Part shown: piece after piece, positions 13,785 to 54,567 of the stretch
Position numbering within the stretch: position 1 is the stretch's first letter
How the letters are laid out: each line of letters begins with the position of its first letter
Assembly: GCA_934153655.1 (NCBI GenBank)
Contig: CAKPFH010000002.1
Location: 1 to 61,972 of the forward strand
Length of the DNA: 61,972 nucleotides
Origin: an uncultured Bacilli bacterium
Lineage (GTDB): Bacteria; Bacillota_I; Bacilli_A; RF39; UBA660
Direction of reading: 5' to 3'
The notes under the pieces: model-generated
Told to the model about the DNA's origin: nothing
What the model saw: the letters and a program-made list of their open reading frames with translations, nothing else
Database searches by the model: none
Program-made: the position numbers and the translations under genes

Positions 13785-13861
<77 letters not shown>

Positions 13862-24011: not shown

Positions 24012-25949
24012 ATGAAAATGAAAGAATTTTTTAGTATGAATAAACCATTTAAAAAATATTTACCAATTTATATGATAATGTTATCAATAGTTCTATTGAT
24101 GGGAACAAGTTATGCTCTTTTAAGAAGTTCGCATCAAGGAGAAAACACTTATACAATGAATGTTGGAACTCTTCAAGTGACATTTGTTGATAGTGCAACT
24201 AATGCTTTAACTCTTGAAAATGCTTATCCAATGACAGATGATGAGGGCATGAGTGAAACAAAAGAACTTACTTTTACGGTTAAAAACACCGGAACTATTA
24301 CAGCTAAATATTCAGTTTATATCGAAGAAACCTCAACTAGTCCTGAGTTTAAAAGTGTAATTAGATTTATTTCTAATAAAAATGATGCTGGTTATAATAA
24401 TCCTAAGACTTTATCAGAAGATAAATATATTGATAGTGAGTCATATCTTAAAGTATCTGAAACAGCTGTTTACAAGGTAAAAGCTTGGATATCTGAAACT
24501 GCTGATAGTACTTATATGAATAAAACATTTACAGCTAGAATTGTTGTTTATAGTGAACAAGCAACTTTAGCTTCTGAAAAAATTAAAGATAATTTAAAAA
24601 ATAAAAATAATGATAGTTGTCAAACTTATCAAGAAAGTGATGGAATATATTATGTTTCAGCAGATGATTGTGTTGACTTTAACTATGTTTGGTATAGTGG
24701 TAAAATGTGGCGTATTGTATCAGTTAATTCTGATGGAACTATTAAAATGATGACTGATAATAATATAACAACAATTGCCTTTGGTGCTAACCATAGATTT
24801 TATGATTTTAAAAACAATATAACTTCCTTTGCTTATCAATTTTTAAATGAAGATTTTTTAGATACTTTATATAATTATCAAAATGTAATAGTTACTGATA
24901 ATACTTGGAATGAAAGTTCAACTTCTTCTATTGATACCGAACTTCCAACAACAGGTGATACTGCTAAAATAATTAATAATGCAACAACTGGTAAGAATAC
25001 CCCGGTAGGACTATTGAACACTTATGAATACTATATGAGTTTTAGTGATGACTATGCTGAGTGTAATAGTAAAGCTGATACTTTTTGGCTTTTAAATAGT
25101 GAGAATTATGATGCTTCAGCAACTGCTGGATCAATATTTGCAAGTTGTAATGATGGTGGAGGAGCTGATAATTCAATTAGTGGTATAAGACCGGTTGTAA
25201 GTTTATTATCATCAATTAAATTTACATCAGGAAATGGTACTAAAACTAATCCATATCGTGTATCAGGTGATATGGAAGACGCAACAGCTAATACAACCCT
25301 TTTAAATACTAGAAATAGTGGTGAATATATTAAAATTGATAATGAATTATATCGAATTTCAAGTATTAATAATAACATAACTAAAGTGATAAAAGATACT
25401 TATGTTTCAAGCAGTGGAACCTCTTTAACTAAAAAGTTTAGTACATCTTATAAATTTGGTGGTGGTTCAACTGTAGATTATTGGGATTATTATTTAAATA
25501 ATAATTGGTATAATAGTTTATCAGTTAAAAGTTTAATAACAAGTGGAACTTTCTATATAAATTATGTTGATGGTGGAAATCATATTGGTAGTGATAATAT
25601 TGAAATGATTTCAGATCCCATAAATTATAAGAATGGTATTTGTTCTACTGTTAATACAACGGATACAATTAAAAATTGTACTAAAACTACTAATATTTGG
25701 TCAGGAAATATAGGACTTCCAAGATATGGAGAGATGTTTGCCTCTTTAAGAGACGGGAATACAACAGATTTTTATTTAATAACTCCATATGATAATACTT
25801 ATGTTTGGTCTATAAGTAGTACATCTAGTTTTTCGTTTAATATAGATCCATCTACTTCTTTAAGTGTAACACCAATGTTTAATTTATCAGCAAGTACTAA
25901 GATAACAGGAGGAACTGGATTACCAAATGATCCGTTTACAATAGGCTAA
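24012..25949 (+). CDS. Secreted/anchored protein of unknown function
   Basis: RBS AGGAG. N-terminal signal anchor followed by a TasA-like segment (LLRSSHQGENTYTMNVGTLQVTF). No catalytic motif recognised. Confidence 0.5.
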   Translation: MKMKEFFSMNKPFKKYLPIYMIMLSIVLLMGTSYALLRSSHQGENTYTMNVGTLQVTFVDSATNALTLENAYPMTDDEGMSETKELTFTVKNTGTITAKYSVYIEETSTSPEFKSVIRFISNKNDAGYNNPKTLSEDKYIDSESYLKVSETAVYKVKAWISETADSTYMNKTFTARIVVYSEQATLASEKIKDNLKNKNNDSCQTYQESDGIYYVSADDCVDFNYVWYSGKMWRIVSVNSDGTIKMMTDNNITTIAFGANHRFYDFKNNITSFAYQFLNEDFLDTLYNYQNVIVTDNTWNESSTSSIDTELPTTGDTAKIINNATTGKNTPVGLLNTYEYYMSFSDDYAECNSKADTFWLLNSENYDASATAGSIFASCNDGGGADNSISGIRPVVSLLSSIKFTSGNGTKTNPYRVSGDMEDATANTTLLNTRNSGEYIKIDNELYRISSINNNITKVIKDTYVSSSGTSLTKKFSTSYKFGGGSTVDYWDYYLNNNWYNSLSVKSLITSGTFYINYVDGGNHIGSDNIEMISDPINYKNGICSTVNTTDTIKNCTKTTNIWSGNIGLPRYGEMFASLRDGNTTDFYLITPYDNTYVWSISSTSSFSFNIDPSTSLSVTPMFNLSASTKITGGTGLPNDPFTIG

Positions 25950-26141: not shown

Positions 26142-28490
26142 ATGATTACTGATGTATGTAAAAGTGATACTTTAAAAGTTATTAAAAGAGATGGAAAGAA
26201 AGTTCCTTTTAATGAAGATAAAATAGGTCTTGCAATTAAAAAGGGCTTTGATAGTTTAGGAGAAAAATATAAACCAGATGATAGTAGTTTAGTTTATAAA
26301 AAAGTAATTGAAGATATTAATGAAAATTATAGTGATAGTAAAACTATTAAAATAGAAGATATTCAAGATTTAATTGAAAATAATTTAAGAGAACTAGGGT
26401 ATGTTGATGTTCTTGAAAGTTTTGCAAGTTATAGAGAAGCTAGAGATAAATCAAGAAGTATGTTTCAAAGTCGTCAACATAAACTTATTAAAGCAATTGA
26501 AGCTTTGTCTTTAAAAGATGCTAGTGAAGAAGATAGTAAAAGAGATAATGCTAATGTTAATGGTGATACAGCTATGGGAACAATGCTTCAATATGGAAGT
26601 ACTATCTCAAAAGAATTTTCTAAGTCATATTTTATTAAACCTGAGTTTTCAGATATGCATGATTCTGGAATGATACATATTCATGATATGGACTTTTTAC
26701 CAATGGGTACAACTACTTGTTGTCAAATAGATTTAGCTAGTTTATTTGAAAAAGGTTTTTCAACAGGACATGGATTCTTAAGAAGTCCTAATAGCATTAT
26801 GAGTTATGCTGCTCTTGCTGCTATTGCTATTCAATCTAATCAAAATGATCAACATGGTGGTCAATCAATTCCAGCCTTTGATTACTATATGGCTCCTGGG
26901 GTTGTTAAATCATTTAGAAAAGAATTTAAATCACTTTTATTTGACTTTTTAGAACTTGAAGGATTTGATAAATTCTTAAATATGAAAGGTATTGAAAAAG
27001 AAATATCTAAAATTAAAGAAGTTAATTTTAATATGAATGCTTTTGAACATTTCTTTAAAGGTTCAGGAGATGTTGAATTATTATTTAGAAAGGCTCACAA
27101 AAAAGCTATTGTTAAAGTTGAAAAACTTACATATCAAGCAATGGAAAGCTTTATTCATAATTTAAATACCATGCATTCAAGAGCAGGGGCACAAGTACCA
27201 TTTTCATCTATTAACTTTGGAACTGATACAAGTTTTGAAGGAAGAATGGTAATGAAAAATTATTTACTTGCAACTGAGGCTGGTCTTGGTCATGGAGAAA
27301 CACCAATTTTCCCAATTTCAATATTTAAAGTAAAAGAAGGTGTTAACTATAATAAAACTGATCCAAACTATGATTTATTTGAACTTGCTTGTAAGGTTTC
27401 AGCTAAAAGATTATTTCCAAATTTCTCATTTATTGATGCTCCATTTAATAAACAATATTATAAAGAAGGTAATATCAACACAGAAATTGCTTATATGGGA
27501 TGTCGTACAAGAGTTATAGGAAATGTTGTTGATCCAGATAGAGAAATTGTAACTGGTCGTGGTAATTTATCATTTACATCAATTAACTTAGTTCGTTTAG
27601 GAATTAAATACGGAATTGTAAATGGGGCTAAAAAAGCCGATATGGAAGGATTTTATAAAGAATTATCTGAAACTATGGATAAAGTTCGTGATCAATTACT
27701 TGATAGATTTGATATTCAGTGCAAAAAACACGTTTATAACTTCCCATTCTTACTTGGACAAGGTATTTGGATAGATTCTAAAAACTTAAAAAATAAAGAT
27801 AATTTAAGAAAAGTTTTGAAACATGGTACTTTAACTGAAGGATTTATTGGTCTTGCAGAATGCTTGAAAGCTTTAACTGGTAAACATCATGGAGAATCTA
27901 AACAATCTCAAGAATTAGGTCTTGAAATTGTTAAATTCATGCGTAATAAGTGTGATGAATACACTAAAGAATATAAACTTAATTTCTCTTTAATTGCAAC
28001 TCCAGCCGAAGGTTTATCAGGCCGTTTTACAGCAATTGATAAATCAATTTATGGTATTATTCCAGGAGTAACTGATAGAGAATACTATACAAATTCTTTC
28101 CATGTACCAGTTTATTATCAAACAACTATTTCCAATAAAATTAAAACTGAAGCACCATATCATGCTTTAACTAATGGAGGACATATTTCATATATTGAAC
28201 TTGATGGTGATTTATGTGAAAATGTTGATGCTTTCATTAAAGTTATTCGTATGATGAAAGAAGCAGGAATAGGTTATGGAGCAGTTAATCATCCAGTAGA
28301 TAGAGATCCAGTTTGTGGTTTCACTGGTGTTATTGGAGATGTTTGCCCAGGATGTGGTAGACGTGAAACAGACGGGGTTAAATTTGAAAGAATTAGAAGA
28401 ATTACCGGTTATTTAGTTGGTACTGTTGATAGATTTAACAATGGTAAAAAAGCTGAAGAACATGACCGTGTAAAACATACTTTTAAATAA
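26142..28490 (+). CDS. nrdD: Anaerobic ribonucleoside-triphosphate reductase (class III)
   Basis: N-terminal ATP-cone (VIKRDGKKVPFNEDKI). C-terminal Zn site CPGCG. Glycyl radical motif RRITGYLVG. Confidence 0.95.
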   Translation: MITDVCKSDTLKVIKRDGKKVPFNEDKIGLAIKKGFDSLGEKYKPDDSSLVYKKVIEDINENYSDSKTIKIEDIQDLIENNLRELGYVDVLESFASYREARDKSRSMFQSRQHKLIKAIEALSLKDASEEDSKRDNANVNGDTAMGTMLQYGSTISKEFSKSYFIKPEFSDMHDSGMIHIHDMDFLPMGTTTCCQIDLASLFEKGFSTGHGFLRSPNSIMSYAALAAIAIQSNQNDQHGGQSIPAFDYYMAPGVVKSFRKEFKSLLFDFLELEGFDKFLNMKGIEKEISKIKEVNFNMNAFEHFFKGSGDVELLFRKAHKKAIVKVEKLTYQAMESFIHNLNTMHSRAGAQVPFSSINFGTDTSFEGRMVMKNYLLATEAGLGHGETPIFPISIFKVKEGVNYNKTDPNYDLFELACKVSAKRLFPNFSFIDAPFNKQYYKEGNINTEIAYMGCRTRVIGNVVDPDREIVTGRGNLSFTSINLVRLGIKYGIVNGAKKADMEGFYKELSETMDKVRDQLLDRFDIQCKKHVYNFPFLLGQGIWIDSKNLKNKDNLRKVLKHGTLTEGFIGLAECLKALTGKHHGESKQSQELGLEIVKFMRNKCDEYTKEYKLNFSLIATPAEGLSGRFTAIDKSIYGIIPGVTDREYYTNSFHVPVYYQTTISNKIKTEAPYHALTNGGHISYIELDGDLCENVDAFIKVIRMMKEAGIGYGAVNHPVDRDPVCGFTGVIGDVCPGCGRRETDGVKFERIRRITGYLVGTVDRFNNGKKAEEHDRVKHTFK

Positions 28491-29011
28491 TGCAAATTCG
28501 TCTTGCCAATCCTTTACAAAAAGATAGTGTAGTTGATGGACCAGGAATTAGAATGGTCGTTTGGACTCAAGGATGTCCCCATCACTGCCTAAATTGTCAT
28601 AACCCCGAAACTCATTCTTTTGATAAAGGATTTATAACTGATACTACTAATATAATCAATGAAATCAAAAATTCGGAACTTCAAGATGGCTTGACTTTTT
28701 CTGGAGGAGATCCCATGATGCAACCACTTCCTTGTTTAGAAATTGCTAAATCTGCTAAAGAAATGGGACTTAATGTTTGGTGTTATACCGGTTTTCTCTT
28801 TGAAAAATTATTAGAAATACCAGATTGTGTTGAATTTTTAAAATATGTTGATGTCTTAGTTGATGGACCATTTATTGATTCTTTAAAAAGTTATAGCGCT
28901 AAATATCGAGGTTCTAAAAATCAAAGAATAATAAATGTTAAACCATCTTTAAAAAAACAAAAAGCTGTTCTTGTAAAAGAATATATAATAAGAGATAAGT
29001 TAGTTAATTAA
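28490..29011 (+). CDS. nrdG: Anaerobic RNR activating protein (radical SAM)
   Basis: TAATG overlap with nrdD. CPHHCLNCHNP (CxxxCxxC). GLTFSGGDP. Confidence 0.9.
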   Translation: MQIRLANPLQKDSVVDGPGIRMVVWTQGCPHHCLNCHNPETHSFDKGFITDTTNIINEIKNSELQDGLTFSGGDPMMQPLPCLEIAKSAKEMGLNVWCYTGFLFEKLLEIPDCVEFLKYVDVLVDGPFIDSLKSYSAKYRGSKNQRIINVKPSLKKQKAVLVKEYIIRDKLVN

Positions 29012-29314
29012 TTCTAACTTATCTCCTTTTTTTAAATCTTTTAAAAAATTATTAGGTAGTTCATAGATATAATAAGCATTTTTATTAAAAACTATTTTAT
29101 TTTTTTCTAAATTCTTTTTAAAATCTATTGTAATATTATCTTTATTTGTTATAATAACATCTATATTTTCTTTCATAAGAAAAGTATGAATACTTTTAGT
29201 TTTAAAAACTAAAGCTTTGTTAATATTTCTTTGAAACATAAAACCAATTAATCTTTTAATTGGAGTATTAGCTTTTTCTAAATAAATTATTTGATTGTTA
29301 ACTTTTAGTTTCAT
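29000..29314 (-). CDS. DUF192-like small protein
   Basis: The start is taken at the internal ATG 29314 (MKLKVNN...) behind AAGGTGA. The sequence pattern P..R..GFMF......ALVF....SIHTF is typical of the DUF192/COG1430 family. The 72-codon upstream extension in the ORF track has no support. Confidence 0.55.
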   Translation of the reverse strand: MKLKVNNQIIYLEKANTPIKRLIGFMFQRNINKALVFKTKSIHTFLMKENIDVIITNKDNITIDFKKNLEKNKIVFNKNAYYIYELPNNFLKDLKKGDKLELIN

Positions 29315-29382
29315 TTTATCACCTTGACTTTTCCCTAATTTTAATATAACATAATATATGAATATGTCAAGGTGGTGATTAA

Positions 29383-30132
29383 ATGGGGCAAGAAAGAATG
29401 ACTGTTGATGAATGGAATGAAATTCGTGTTTTAGTTGATGAATATGTTCAAAAACTAGATGATGAAAAAAGAATGGTAAGACCAGAAAGTAGTAAAACCG
29501 AAGACGAGAAATTAATTGAAGAATTAGCAAGAAGAGTTTATGAAAGATCAGTTATGATTGAACCAGCTATAACTAATGATATTCGAGAATTAACAAGAAG
29601 CACCAATGGAAGTTTGTTAGGTAGATATGATTATCAAGAAGGAGTAATTATCCCATCTCATGTTTTAAAAGAAAAAGCAAGTATTAAAAGAAAAATTGTA
29701 GGTGATAGTGCTGCTTATCATGGTAGTTTTGAAGAAGCTGCTAATCATCTTCGCGATAGTGTAAGATATACAATTATTTTTGATGATGATAGTTATATTC
29801 AAGGCGTAGATAGTTTTTTGCATCAATTAGAAGACTTAGGTTACTATGATATAGAAGTTAAAAATAACTGGGGATCTGAAACTTGTCAAGGAATAAATGC
29901 TAAGTTAAAAACAAGTGATGGTATCTATTTTGAAATACAATTTCATACTCCATACGGTCATCACATAAAAGAAGAGTGTACAAGAACTTTATATCGAGTT
30001 ATCCGTGATGATGATGCACCAGGTAAATTAAAGTTTAAAGCTAACAAATTAAGAAAAATATTACAGGCAAGTGTAAAAATGCCAGTTAATGCCAAAGATT
30101 ATCAATTTCAATCAGGAATGAAGAGGAGGTAA
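29383..30132 (+). CDS. RelA/SpoT-fold nucleotide pyrophosphokinase-like protein (toxSAS-like candidate toxin)
   Basis: RBS AAGGTGGTGA. By-eye alignment to small alarmone synthetases: LKEKASIKRKI ~ RVK..SI.EK; LRDSVRYTIIFDDD ~ D.AG.RI.C..  .D; CQGINAKLK ~ GYRS.H..V; FEIQFHT (nt 29932-29949) ~ EIQIRT. Confidence 0.6.
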   Translation: MGQERMTVDEWNEIRVLVDEYVQKLDDEKRMVRPESSKTEDEKLIEELARRVYERSVMIEPAITNDIRELTRSTNGSLLGRYDYQEGVIIPSHVLKEKASIKRKIVGDSAAYHGSFEEAANHLRDSVRYTIIFDDDSYIQGVDSFLHQLEDLGYYDIEVKNNWGSETCQGINAKLKTSDGIYFEIQFHTPYGHHIKEECTRTLYRVIRDDDAPGKLKFKANKLRKILQASVKMPVNAKDYQFQSGMKRR

Positions 30133-30133
30133 T

Positions 30134-30574
30134 ATGCAATATTTTATTTATACAAATGGTTCATCTGTTGAACAAATTATTATTAGACTTAATGATTCTA
30201 AAAATGCTGAATATTTTGATTATGATGGTTCATGGAAAAAATGTGATTTATCAAAATTAAAATTATGTGGAGAAGTTCAAGAAATTACAGAATCTCAATT
30301 TAGAAAAATTCAAGATAATAATTATAAATATTATTTTTGCAAGAAAAGAGAACCTAAATTATTAGTTCGTATTTTCAATGAAATTTATTTAGAAATCTAT
30401 GATGAAAATTCTAATACTTGGAAAAAAGCTCCTAATAGTACATGGTTATCTAATATATTATATGATGGTGATTCTGATTTTGAAGAAATAAATGCTAAAG
30501 ATGCTTTTATTTATAAAAATAGTATCATTGAAAAAAATATAAATAATGAAAATAATAAAAAGATGACAAGATAA
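30134..30574 (+). CDS. Hypothetical protein, internally duplicated. Candidate antitoxin/immunity partner of the upstream gene
   Basis: The AGGAGG RBS lies inside the 3' end of the upstream gene, and the ATG starts 1 nt after its stop. Two similar halves: IIIRLNDSKNAEYFDYDGSWKK and LLVRIFNEIYLEIYDENSNTWKK. Confidence 0.5.
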   Translation: MQYFIYTNGSSVEQIIIRLNDSKNAEYFDYDGSWKKCDLSKLKLCGEVQEITESQFRKIQDNNYKYYFCKKREPKLLVRIFNEIYLEIYDENSNTWKKAPNSTWLSNILYDGDSDFEEINAKDAFIYKNSIIEKNINNENNKKMTR

Positions 30575-32927: not shown

Positions 32928-33452
32928 ATGACAATAGGATATTTATTAAGTGTTTTAGATTTATATTTACTAAAAGAAAAAAATAATACTTTATTAATTC
33001 AAGTAGATAATAAAGAAAACTTAGTTAAATTTAATTTTACTTATTCATTTGATTCTATTAATCAAACATTTGTTAAAATAGATAAAGATTTATTCTTTAA
33101 TAATTTAGATGAAATAGTTAAAAAAATAATTGGTAATTTAGAATTAGTTAAAGAAGATTTAGAGACTAAAAATAACAAAAATATTTATACTTTAAATTAT
33201 TCTAGTAAAAGAATAGTAACATTTGTTGGTTTTAACAAAGATGAAATGGTAAAAATAAGAGATAAATTTAATTTAAAAGAATCTTTTAGTTTTGATATTT
33301 TAAAAGATACTTATGATAATAAATTATTAGTTAATTCTAATTTAAAATTACAACTTGGTTTTTCAAGTTATATGTCTTTGTTTTTATCCTCTATATTTTT
33401 ACTTGATGTATTAATGATTTCACTTTGGGTATTTAAAGCATTTTTAGCTTGA
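32928..33452 (+). CDS. Hypothetical protein with C-terminal TM helix
   Basis: RBS AGGAGGG. No recognisable motif. Confidence 0.45.
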   Translation: MTIGYLLSVLDLYLLKEKNNTLLIQVDNKENLVKFNFTYSFDSINQTFVKIDKDLFFNNLDEIVKKIIGNLELVKEDLETKNNKNIYTLNYSSKRIVTFVGFNKDEMVKIRDKFNLKESFSFDILKDTYDNKLLVNSNLKLQLGFSSYMSLFLSSIFLLDVLMISLWVFKAFLA

Positions 33453-51242: not shown

Positions 51243-51316
51243 TGGCAGGGAATGAGAGAATCGAACTCCCATCAAAGGTTTTGGAGACCCCTATTTTACC
51301 ATTAAACTAATTCCCT
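51243..51316 (-). tRNA. tRNA-Trp (anticodon CCA), CCA encoded
   Basis: The reverse complement folds by hand. Acceptor AGGGAAT/ATTCCCT, anticodon stem GGGGT/ACCTT with loop CTCCAAA, T-arm GGGAG TTCGATT CTCTC, discriminator G, then CCA. Confidence 0.85.
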
Positions 51317-54474: not shown

Positions 54475-54567
54475 GGAGTAGTACTCAAGAGGCTGAAGAG
54501 GCTCCCCTGCTAAGGGAGTAGATCGGGTTAAACTGGTGCGAGGGTTCAAATCCCTCCTGCTCCGCCA
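54475..54567 (+). tRNA. tRNA-Ser (anticodon GCT), long variable arm, CCA encoded
   Basis: Acceptor GGAGTAG/CTGCTCC, anticodon stem CTCCC/GGGAG with loop CTGCTAA, a ~21-nt variable arm, T-arm GAGGG TTCAAAT CCCTC, then G CCA. Confidence 0.9.

Follow-up and report, generated by a model that had tools for sequence, protein, structure and literature searches.

Within the 61,972 nucleotides of contig CAKPFH010000002.1 (GenBank assembly GCA_934153655.1, from an uncultured Bacilli bacterium) that we analysed, and that are called the window below, two adjacent open reading frames (ORFs) on the forward strand encode a predicted small alarmone synthetase (SAS; ORF1) and a small partner that resembles the phage immunity protein IapK (ORF2). 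An earlier note, made from the DNA letters, had described ORF1 as a stand-alone toxin of the RelA/SpoT fold that is translationally coupled to an unknown ORF and inserted between nrdG and ftsK. Its ORF coordinates, the single nucleotide between the two frames and the AGGAGG that it placed in the 3′ end of ORF1 all proved correct, and the features of the pair are as follows.

29383-30132 (+): ORF1, 249 amino acids (aa), predicted stand-alone SAS with the SYNTH domain of RelA/SpoT homologues (RSH), assigned to the Tas1/Apk/EAS branch (EAS, exported alarmone synthetase)
29755-29757 (+): D125, predicted catalytic residue of ORF1
29764-29766 (+): R128, predicted catalytic residue; K160 and N172 of ORF1 are likewise predicted to be catalytic
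29929-29949 (+): FEIQFHT motif
29932-29934 (+): E184, predicted catalytic residue
29938-29940 (+): Q186, predicted catalytic residue
30124-30129 (+): AGGAGG, Shine–Dalgarno sequence of ORF2, within the final ORF1 codons (K-R-R = AAG AGG AGG)
30130-30132 (+): TAA stop of ORF1, followed by a single base (T) at 30133 and the ATG of ORF2 at 30134
30134-30574 (+): ORF2, 146 aa, IapK-like partner
30134-30319 (+): N-terminal half of ORF2 (aa 1-62), apparently a diverged first IapK-like copy
30320-30574 (+): C-terminal half of ORF2 (aa 63-146), predicted IapK-like domain (phrog_3514), then a helical tail ending K-K-M-T-R

The C-terminal K-R-R of the synthetase and the tight coupling recur in related loci, where the two frames overlap by up to 4 nt or lie up to 11 nt apart. 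The two ORFs are genuine genes, given that they are conserved in many lineages, have ratios of nonsynonymous to synonymous substitution rates (dN/dS) below 1 and yield confident folds (predicted local distance difference test scores (pLDDT) of 89 and 81).

Fold and active site of ORF1

The branch to which ORF1 belongs is divergent and barely reached by the Pfam RelA_SpoT model (PF04607), the search that the earlier note had proposed: ORF1 itself is not matched even at an expectation value (E) of E<=10, and the model reaches 11 of 20 members of its subfamily (best E=4.1e-6). PADLOC, Pfam and NCBIfam gave no direct family assignment for either ORF. Partial matches were found to the XopAD C-terminus in NCBIfam (E=4.5e-22; that is, the last ~160 residues of XopAD/skwp type III effectors) and to the MuF C-terminus of the phage ‘head morphogenesis’ family phrog_7625 (E=1.5e-17, profile positions 321-497 of 504). 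These arise because the synthetase domain of this type occurs fused to delivery modules, XopAD, MuF, LXG, DUF4157 and PAAR among them (PMC12691689). Against the solved structures in the PDB, phmmer returned one significant relative, 8VX3 (E=1.1e-7), which is labelled ‘SaSAS’ and corresponds to SaEAS, an exported alarmone synthetase of Streptomyces albidoflavus that makes (p)ppApp and (p)ppGpp (PMC12691689). Identity to SaEAS is only ~22%; a profile of 20 ORF1 homologues matched the same structure across residues 51-235 with E=1.5e-18, and its match to Tas1 was marginal (E=0.69).

An alignment-based AlphaFold2 model of ORF1 (pLDDT 89.4, predicted TM-score 0.84) has the central antiparallel beta-sheet and flanking helices of the synthetase fold. 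Foldseek placed SaEAS first among PDB structures (E=3.6e-12, target-normalised TM-score 0.81), followed by Tas1/Apk1 (E=1.4e-6), RelQ/SAS1, RelP and the long Rel enzymes, and the top 39 matches were all RSH synthetases. With tblastn, ORF1 was 27-32% identical to the toxin domains of phage Apk2 proteins over residues 6-236 and 49-242, the longer match being to MuF toxins of Streptococcus pneumoniae prophages. The ~90-aa helical leader of the earlier description thus consists mostly of the first helices of the synthetase domain, given that the SaEAS alignment begins at residue 51 and the Apk2 match at residue 6. Together, sequence comparison and modelling place ORF1 among the RSH synthetase-fold enzymes, in the Tas1/Apk/EAS branch, and the RelA/SpoT-fold assignment of the earlier note is upheld by the SaEAS profile match, the structural similarity and five aligned active-site residues.

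Those five are among the six active-site (that is, ATP-site) residues named for SaEAS (PMC12691689): D121, R124, N169, E182 and Q184 align with D125, R128, N172, E184 and Q186 of ORF1, all of which also occur in the phage Apk2 toxin domains and do not vary among 15 lineages with overall identities down to ~35%. ORF1 and the Apk2 toxin domains have in common the motifs D-x-(L/V)-R-Y-T, K-(V)-K-N-x-W, G-(I/V)-N and F-E-x-Q-(F/Y)-H-T, and judged by these residues and motifs the active site appears to be intact and conserved. The motifs quoted in the earlier note are present, although it had begun FEIQFHT at 29932 rather than 29929. It had also taken the histidine in place of the canonical arginine (EIQIRT to FEIQFHT) as a possible sign of altered chemistry. 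The same histidine occurs in SaEAS (FEVQFHT) and phage Apk2 (FE(I/M)QYHT), which make (p)ppApp and/or (p)ppGpp; it is therefore typical of this branch and gives no sign of new chemistry.

Searches of Pfam, NCBIfam and PHROG found no MuF, PAAR, LXG or DUF4157 domain in ORF1. The N-terminus (MGQERMTVDEWNEIRVLVDEY) is acidic and hydrophilic, has no hydrophobic stretch and is modelled as a packed helix; no signal peptide-like segment was seen in its composition or in the model. The earlier statement that ORF1 carries neither a hydrolase domain nor an LXG or secretion-type N-terminus agrees with these searches and with the N-terminal composition.

The partner and its phage relatives

ORF2, which the earlier note had left without an assignment, is no orphan: it matches phrog_3514 (68 positions, a family without known function) with E=2.8e-10 and belongs to a family that occupies the position of iapK in phage genomes. 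In the Streptococcus phages Javan452 and IPP60, a MuF-SAS gene is followed after 1-2 nt by an ORF of 68-69 aa and then by an HD pyrophosphohydrolase gene, an order equal to apk2-iapK-aph1 (as in SPNA45_00317-00319). The small ORFs of the two phages match phrog_3514 with E=5e-29 and 3e-37, respectively, and the phrog_3514 gene lies between apk2 and the HD hydrolase gene in phages of S. pneumoniae and S. pyogenes. Alignment of the partner-family profile with the IPP60 protein by hhalign gave a probability of 96.1% (E=3.1e-9, 65 columns), and in a pairwise BLASTP of partner and phage protein (E=2e-6) DFEEINAKDAFIY pairs with DFEEISENDAFTYI. A tblastn search of ORF2 against 50,697 phage genomes returned no match, the link from ORF2 to phages having been found by the PHROG profile and hhalign only. 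IapK is reported to neutralise Apk2, a toxin that synthesises (p)ppApp, by covering its site for the acceptor nucleotide, mostly in a cognate-specific way (PMC12226406), and Aph1 hydrolyses the product of Apk2 (PMC12226406, PMC10083569). The arrangement of toxin and immunity or antitoxin gene proposed in the earlier note is consistent with this homology to Apk2-IapK.

Where IapK is a single domain of ~70 aa, ORF2 appears to carry two such domains in tandem. A hidden Markov model of the single-domain partners matched aa 62-146 with E=4.5e-10 and the N-terminal half weakly (E=0.017), and the phage-protein match likewise falls on the C-terminal half. When the N-terminal halves were aligned by hhalign with the C-terminal halves and the phage proteins at the iapK position, the probability was 95.1% (E=3.1e-8), and in the AlphaFold model of ORF2 (pLDDT 81) a strand/helix pattern occurs twice, once per half. 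Two clear copies are also found in the partners of two other lineages (L016 and L017); the remaining lineages have a single copy in proteins of 76-112 aa. On the basis of these alignments and the model, we consider ORF2 to be a tandem duplication of the IapK immunity domain. No relative of ORF2 was found among the solved structures with either the single sequence or the profile, and its model found no match to Tis1 in Foldseek.

A small, coupled partner follows the SAS gene in every Bacilli locus with enough downstream DNA. An exhaustive search of 1.84 billion representatives with the partner profile yielded 24 proteins at E<=1e-3, and of the nine inspected, one was a false positive with FN3 repeats and the other eight were small proteins of this type. 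Partner C-termini in loci L001-L017 and P0024-P0058 end K-K-(M/I)-T-R (30557-30571 in the window), even where the rest can barely be aligned, and this ending is absent from the phage proteins at the iapK position; it may be a functional tail (for example, a degradation signal) or reflect constraint from the DNA upstream of ftsK.

Genomic setting and evolution of the pair

Homologues of ORF1 at 33-62% identity occur only in metagenome-assembled genomes of uncultured gut ‘Bacilli’ (from humans (Hadza), rabbits and ruminants), and the next tier (~30% identity) is the actinomycete EAS group. Essentially all of the Bacilli loci have the order DUF192(−)-SAS-small partner-ftsK, even where different genes lie upstream of DUF192. 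The surrounding genes are housekeeping genes (nrdDG, ftsK, a DnaB_2-type replication gene, thrS and a cell-wall glucosaminidase gene); Pfam annotation found no phage, mobile or secretion genes within ±10 kb of the pair, and no gene for Aph1 or another small alarmone hydrolase (SAH) was found in the window or related loci. The earlier note was right that ftsK lies downstream, but a DUF192 gene separates nrdG from ORF1. Its word ‘inserted’ is not supported, given that every sampled relative with DUF192 beside ftsK has the pair between the two (that is, no case of DUF192 adjacent to ftsK without it was found among the relatives sampled) and that the pair is syntenic across the clade, among housekeeping genes, with no mobile or phage genes nearby. 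The note had also held that conservation of the pair at this position as a metabolic gene would count against a toxin; the pair is indeed conserved throughout the clade, but not as a metabolic gene.

The features upstream of the pair are as follows.

29000-29314 (−): DUF192 gene, 104 aa, divergent from ORF1 (Pfam DUF192, E=2.2e-6)
29324-29352 (+): candidate promoter of the SAS-partner operon, TTGACT / 17 nt / TAACAT, from a consensus scan (low confidence)
29370 to 29343 (−): promoter-like site of the divergent DUF192 gene, facing the candidate promoter of the SAS operon
29370-29378 (+): AGGTGGTGA, Shine–Dalgarno sequence of ORF1, 4 nt upstream of its ATG, read directly

The candidate promoter matches the consensus at 9/12 positions, and such sites are no more frequent in the region than in shuffled background; TTGACT and the preceding bases are kept in six related lineages and the remaining intergenic region is variable, and AAGG(T/A)GGT is kept in relatives at the position of the ORF1 Shine–Dalgarno sequence. 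A program-made ORF list gives DUF192 176 aa (29000-29530, with a TTG start overlapping that of the SAS gene). Its homologues have 102-104 aa, so that the true gene is 29000-29314, which overlaps the 3′ end of nrdG on the opposite strand by 12 nt. No compositional anomaly was found at the pair (GC content 30.9% in the SAS gene and 20.6% in ORF2, compared with 25.1% in the window and 29-30% in nrdD and ftsK).

When loci were sampled by their DUF192 gene instead of the SAS gene, 58 reached far enough upstream; 3 of the 58 carry the SAS gene, each with an IapK-like ORF, and ftsK comes next in the two with sufficient DNA; the other 55, from other lineages, have no SAS gene and share no synteny with the window. 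The block is thus limited to one clade and DUF192 is not an obligatory partner. DUF192 was considered as a third component and rejected as improbable, given its slow evolution (dN/dS 0.16-0.46) and the 55/58 DUF192 loci without SAS. The simplest reading is a single ancient acquisition with vertical descent since. A source or sister of the pair is indicated by Clostridia, in which the SAS domain forms the C-terminus of MuF (SPP1 gp7-type) proteins of 566-593 aa (L042, L051, L057, L061 and L070) and an IapK-like ORF directly follows in three of these five full-length cases (L051, L057 and L070): such fusions point to a phage-type module. In a further locus (L053) an IapK-like ORF follows a MuF fragment, and the Clostridia loci, from Thermotalea, Sporanaerobium and Lacrimispora, resemble prophage toxins of the Apk2 type that are as yet uncharacterised.

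The pair evolves quickly. Relative to lineages in which NrdD is 92-99% and FtsK 77-95% identical, SAS identity is 33-62% and that of the partner 27-59% or undetectable; dN/dS is 0.27-0.49 for SAS and 0.16-0.71 for the partner, compared with 0.03-0.11 for NrdD and FtsK, and dS of the pair (0.7-1.2, near saturation) is modestly above the background of 0.4-0.8. SAS and partner identities correlate (rho=0.61), and this combination of fast evolution and co-variation fits an evolving protein–protein interface. The dN/dS of the pair also resembles that of two neighbouring fast-evolving membrane or surface proteins. These unannotated neighbours, at 32928-33452 (+) and 24012-25949 (+), have dN/dS of 0.3-0.5 and 43-71% identity between the window and the four closest related lineages; the former lies between ftsK and the DnaB_2-type gene and encodes 174 aa, hydrophobic at the C-terminus, and the latter encodes 645 aa, downstream of the glucosaminidase gene. 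The population of the window is represented by 14 contigs, from about a dozen samples, that encode its DUF192 or ORF2 protein without a single change; identity across the pair is 99.3-100% among them. An allele-agnostic DNA probe gave no exact match in the JGI metagenome collection.

One related locus (L010) is 97-100% identical in DNA to the window from nrdD to DUF192, 52-76% across the pair and 85-96% in ftsK. Its nrdD-nrdG-DUF192 segment (window 26142-29314 versus L010:865-4037) is nearly identical, with dS about 0.1, and ftsK has a dS of 0.36. In all-versus-all matrices the left flank of L010 groups with the window, whereas from the SAS through the partner and ftsK to o174 its closest grouping is with L002, which points to a recombination tract with its end in the DUF192|SAS intergenic region (that is, at the promoter). 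The drop in identity is the outcome of fast evolution and this tract; an allelic cassette swap was rejected as unproven, given the L010/L002 grouping, the modest dS and the monomorphic population of the window.

Several loci have peculiarities of their own. Between ftsK and the 174-aa gene, L010 has an extra gene of 816 aa (L010:7614-10064) that is absent from the window and whose product, by eye, is surface protein-like: it has repeats and a long poly-Asn tract, and its C-terminus is possibly glycoside-hydrolase-like. L018 (CAYTGK010000045.1), labelled ‘uncultured Muribaculaceae’ and probably mis-binned, carries the Bacilli-type DUF192-SAS-partner block, followed by an unidentified 238-aa ORF and, over 5.7 kb past the partner, no ftsK. 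In L095 (ERZ28614945 scaffold_451) SAS and partner are called as one gene of 388 aa and ftsK is split in two, probably through frameshift errors in the assembly, and in L097 a truncated nrdD is followed by a different 440-aa gene. The window also encodes tRNAs for Arg(tct) at 13785-13861, Trp(cca) at 51243-51316 (−) and Ser(gct) at 54475-54567; no other Rfam family reached the gathering threshold in it.

A probable coupled toxin and inhibitor at a core locus

Given the fold, the conservation of the active site, the homology of both proteins to Apk2 and IapK, the coupling of the two genes, their synteny throughout the clade and their rapid co-variation, we suggest that ORF1 and ORF2 probably constitute a translationally coupled toxin–immunity module (that is, one resembling type II toxin–antitoxin systems) in which an intact SAS is paired with a duplicated IapK domain. 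ORF1 would transfer the beta,gamma-pyrophosphate of ATP to the 3′-OH of a purine nucleotide. The product would most likely be (p)ppApp, because toxin and partner alike link ORF1 with Apk2; (p)ppGpp may be made as well, given that SaEAS makes a mixed output conceivable. Unchecked, such activity would exhaust ATP and stop growth, which has been demonstrated for Apk1/Tas1, Apk2 and SaEAS. ORF2, made in step with ORF1 through translational coupling, may bind it one-to-one and block the acceptor-nucleotide site in the manner of IapK. As the locus has no MuF, PAAR or LXG domain, signal peptide or Aph1 hydrolase, the module most likely acts inside the producing cell. We envision that, in the ancestor of this clade of uncultured gut Bacilli, a phage-type Apk-IapK module reached fixation between DUF192 and ftsK and was passed on vertically thereafter; it may serve in abortive infection, addiction or physiological growth control.

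The module would work in the manner of Apk2-IapK and of the toxin–antitoxin modules of toxic SASs (toxSAS). It lacks features that define Apk2, Apk1 and EAS systems, and of the validated toxSAS subfamilies, FaRel2 was compared and proved a distant structural match. Apk2-IapK(-Aph1) modules, known from MuF toxins of temperate phages (the S. pneumoniae SPNA45 prophage, Mannheimia, Pasteurella and Bacteroides caccae; PMC12226406, PMC10083569), have a homologous toxin domain and a homologous small protein encoded 1-2 nt after the toxin gene. Unlike them, ORF1 has no N-terminal MuF/SPP1 gp7 domain (249 aa versus ~525-590 aa), the immunity domain is duplicated in tandem, and the locus is chromosomal and vertically inherited, with neither an Aph1 HD hydrolase nor a prophage context. 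SaEAS is the best match of ORF1 in both sequence and structure and has the FE(V/I)QFHT motif in common with it, but it has a Sec signal peptide and neither an adjacent immunity gene nor a conserved chromosomal position, whereas the window-type SAS has no signal peptide and always comes with a partner. With Tas1/Apk1-Tis1 (a type VI secretion system (T6SS) effector pair of Pseudomonas aeruginosa; 6OX6) the pair has in common the RSH-fold branch and the concept of a (p)ppApp-synthetase toxin held by an immunity protein that occludes its active site; Tas1, however, has a PAAR delivery domain and lies in a T6SS cluster. The toxSAS modules (FaRel, FaRel2, PhRel, PhRel2 and CapRel; Jimmy et al. 2020, PMC7229694) likewise have a stand-alone SAS in a tightly coupled bicistronic operon, a small and specific neutralising protein and action inside the producing cell (both predicted for the window pair, the former by homology). 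The window SAS differs in belonging to a RelV/Tas1-like branch, in its IapK-like antitoxin family, in not being matched by PADLOC and in its fixed core-genome locus, toxSAS modules being patchy or mobile. What sets the variant apart is an Apk-type synthetase without delivery module or hydrolase, an IapK-type inhibitor with its domain duplicated, and the fixation of both in the core chromosome.

Several observations weigh against a toxin–immunity module or its details. Vertical conservation across the clade, monomorphism in the population and dN/dS below 1 are unusual for a selfish or defensive toxin–antitoxin module, and these features fit a physiological role equally well. SaEAS K154 aligns with E158 of ORF1, the conserved K/R160 lying two residues further on the same strand, which makes one active-site equivalence uncertain. 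The N-terminal copy in ORF2 is weakly IapK-like and Foldseek found no significant match to the ORF2 model in the PDB and BFVD libraries, so that the mode of inhibition rests on homology to IapK. Finally, published motif swaps failed to convert the acceptor specificity of Apk2 (PMC12226406), and acceptor specificity is accordingly not readable from sequence.

The alternative that survives best, although we regard it as unlikely, is a domesticated physiological alarmone switch of these small-genome gut Bacilli, in which the SAS would serve as a housekeeping source of (p)ppApp/(p)ppGpp for growth control and the IapK-like protein as its regulatory subunit and not as an antidote. The fixation of the pair throughout the clade lends this reading weight, and such a switch would be in keeping with a pair that keeps to one core locus while FtsK identity falls to ~79% and that of SAS to ~35%, has no mobile or phage genes in its surroundings, is represented by one allele in the population and combines an overall dN/dS below 1 with invariant catalytic residues. 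Against this stand the homology of both proteins to a characterised toxin–immunity pair, a dN/dS 3-8 times that of neighbouring housekeeping genes, which is atypical of a core regulator, and the toxicity of characterised relatives at native activity (PMC12691689, PMC12226406). If a phage-type Apk-IapK pair had been domesticated as a core-genome growth switch, which is a minor possibility, (p)ppApp or a mixed alarmone would be a physiological second messenger in these bacteria; it is similarly doubtful, though conceivable, that the two IapK-like domains of the duplicated inhibitor would then allow sensing (for example, release by a phage or stress cue) in place of a plain antidote function.

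The remaining explanations are weaker. A translation-targeting toxSAS that pyrophosphorylates the 3′-CCA end of tRNA (like FaRel2, PhRel2 and CapRel) instead of making a nucleotide alarmone is a reading of ORF1 that we consider improbable: FaRel2 (8pu3) does appear in the fold search, and FaRel2/ATfaRel2 of the gut Bacillota Coprobacillus sp. D7 offers a precedent for pairing a stand-alone SAS with a small partner of the type II kind, yet FaRel2 ranks 32nd (E=2e-3, TM-score 0.29-0.34), far behind SaEAS, Tas1 and RelQ, and is not among the matches in either sequence search of ORF1 or its subfamily profile against solved structures. PADLOC gave no match, and by its motifs and its partner family ORF1 goes with Apk2 and SaEAS, synthetases of (p)ppApp or (p)ppGpp; the closest relatives of ORF1 are SaEAS, Apk2 and Tas1, and not FaRel, PhRel or CapRel, to which the earlier note had pointed. 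It is very improbable that ORF1 is sent into other cells, be it as an exported alarmone synthetase or as a polymorphic toxin, with ORF2 as the self-protecting immunity protein, given its acidic, hydrophilic and packed N-terminus with neither a signal peptide-like segment nor a delivery domain, the lack of secretion-system genes within ±10 kb (Pfam) and the monomorphic allele, even though the nearest solved relative is a secreted enzyme and the order of toxin then immunity gene in a fast co-evolving pair is typical of interbacterial toxin–immunity loci (PMC12691689). That the pair is an inactive relic of a prophage MuF-Apk2 module stripped of its head-protein part, as its homology to a MuF C-terminal toxin domain and the cognate immunity gene and the absence of MuF and Aph1 parts might suggest, is scarcely credible when both ORFs are intact in every lineage, with invariant active-site residues, dN/dS below 1, confident models and maintained translational coupling.

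Synthetases that make (p)ppApp have so far been known as weapons (that is, T6SS effectors, phage MuF toxins, secreted enzymes and the toxins of mobile toxin–antitoxin systems), whereas the window locus holds the same kind of enzyme and inhibitor, without a delivery device, fixed in a clade of abundant uncultured gut bacteria. Stand-alone pairs of this kind would be expected by specialists; fixation in the core genome is unusual. With this locus the small IapK family gains a chromosomal branch in which the domain is duplicated in tandem, and the naturally diverged cognate pairs could be used to study the specificity of toxin–immunity interactions. The locus also provides a test case for whether toxin–immunity pairs can be converted into endogenous switches for growth control or abortive infection, and for whether (p)ppApp may have a physiological role.

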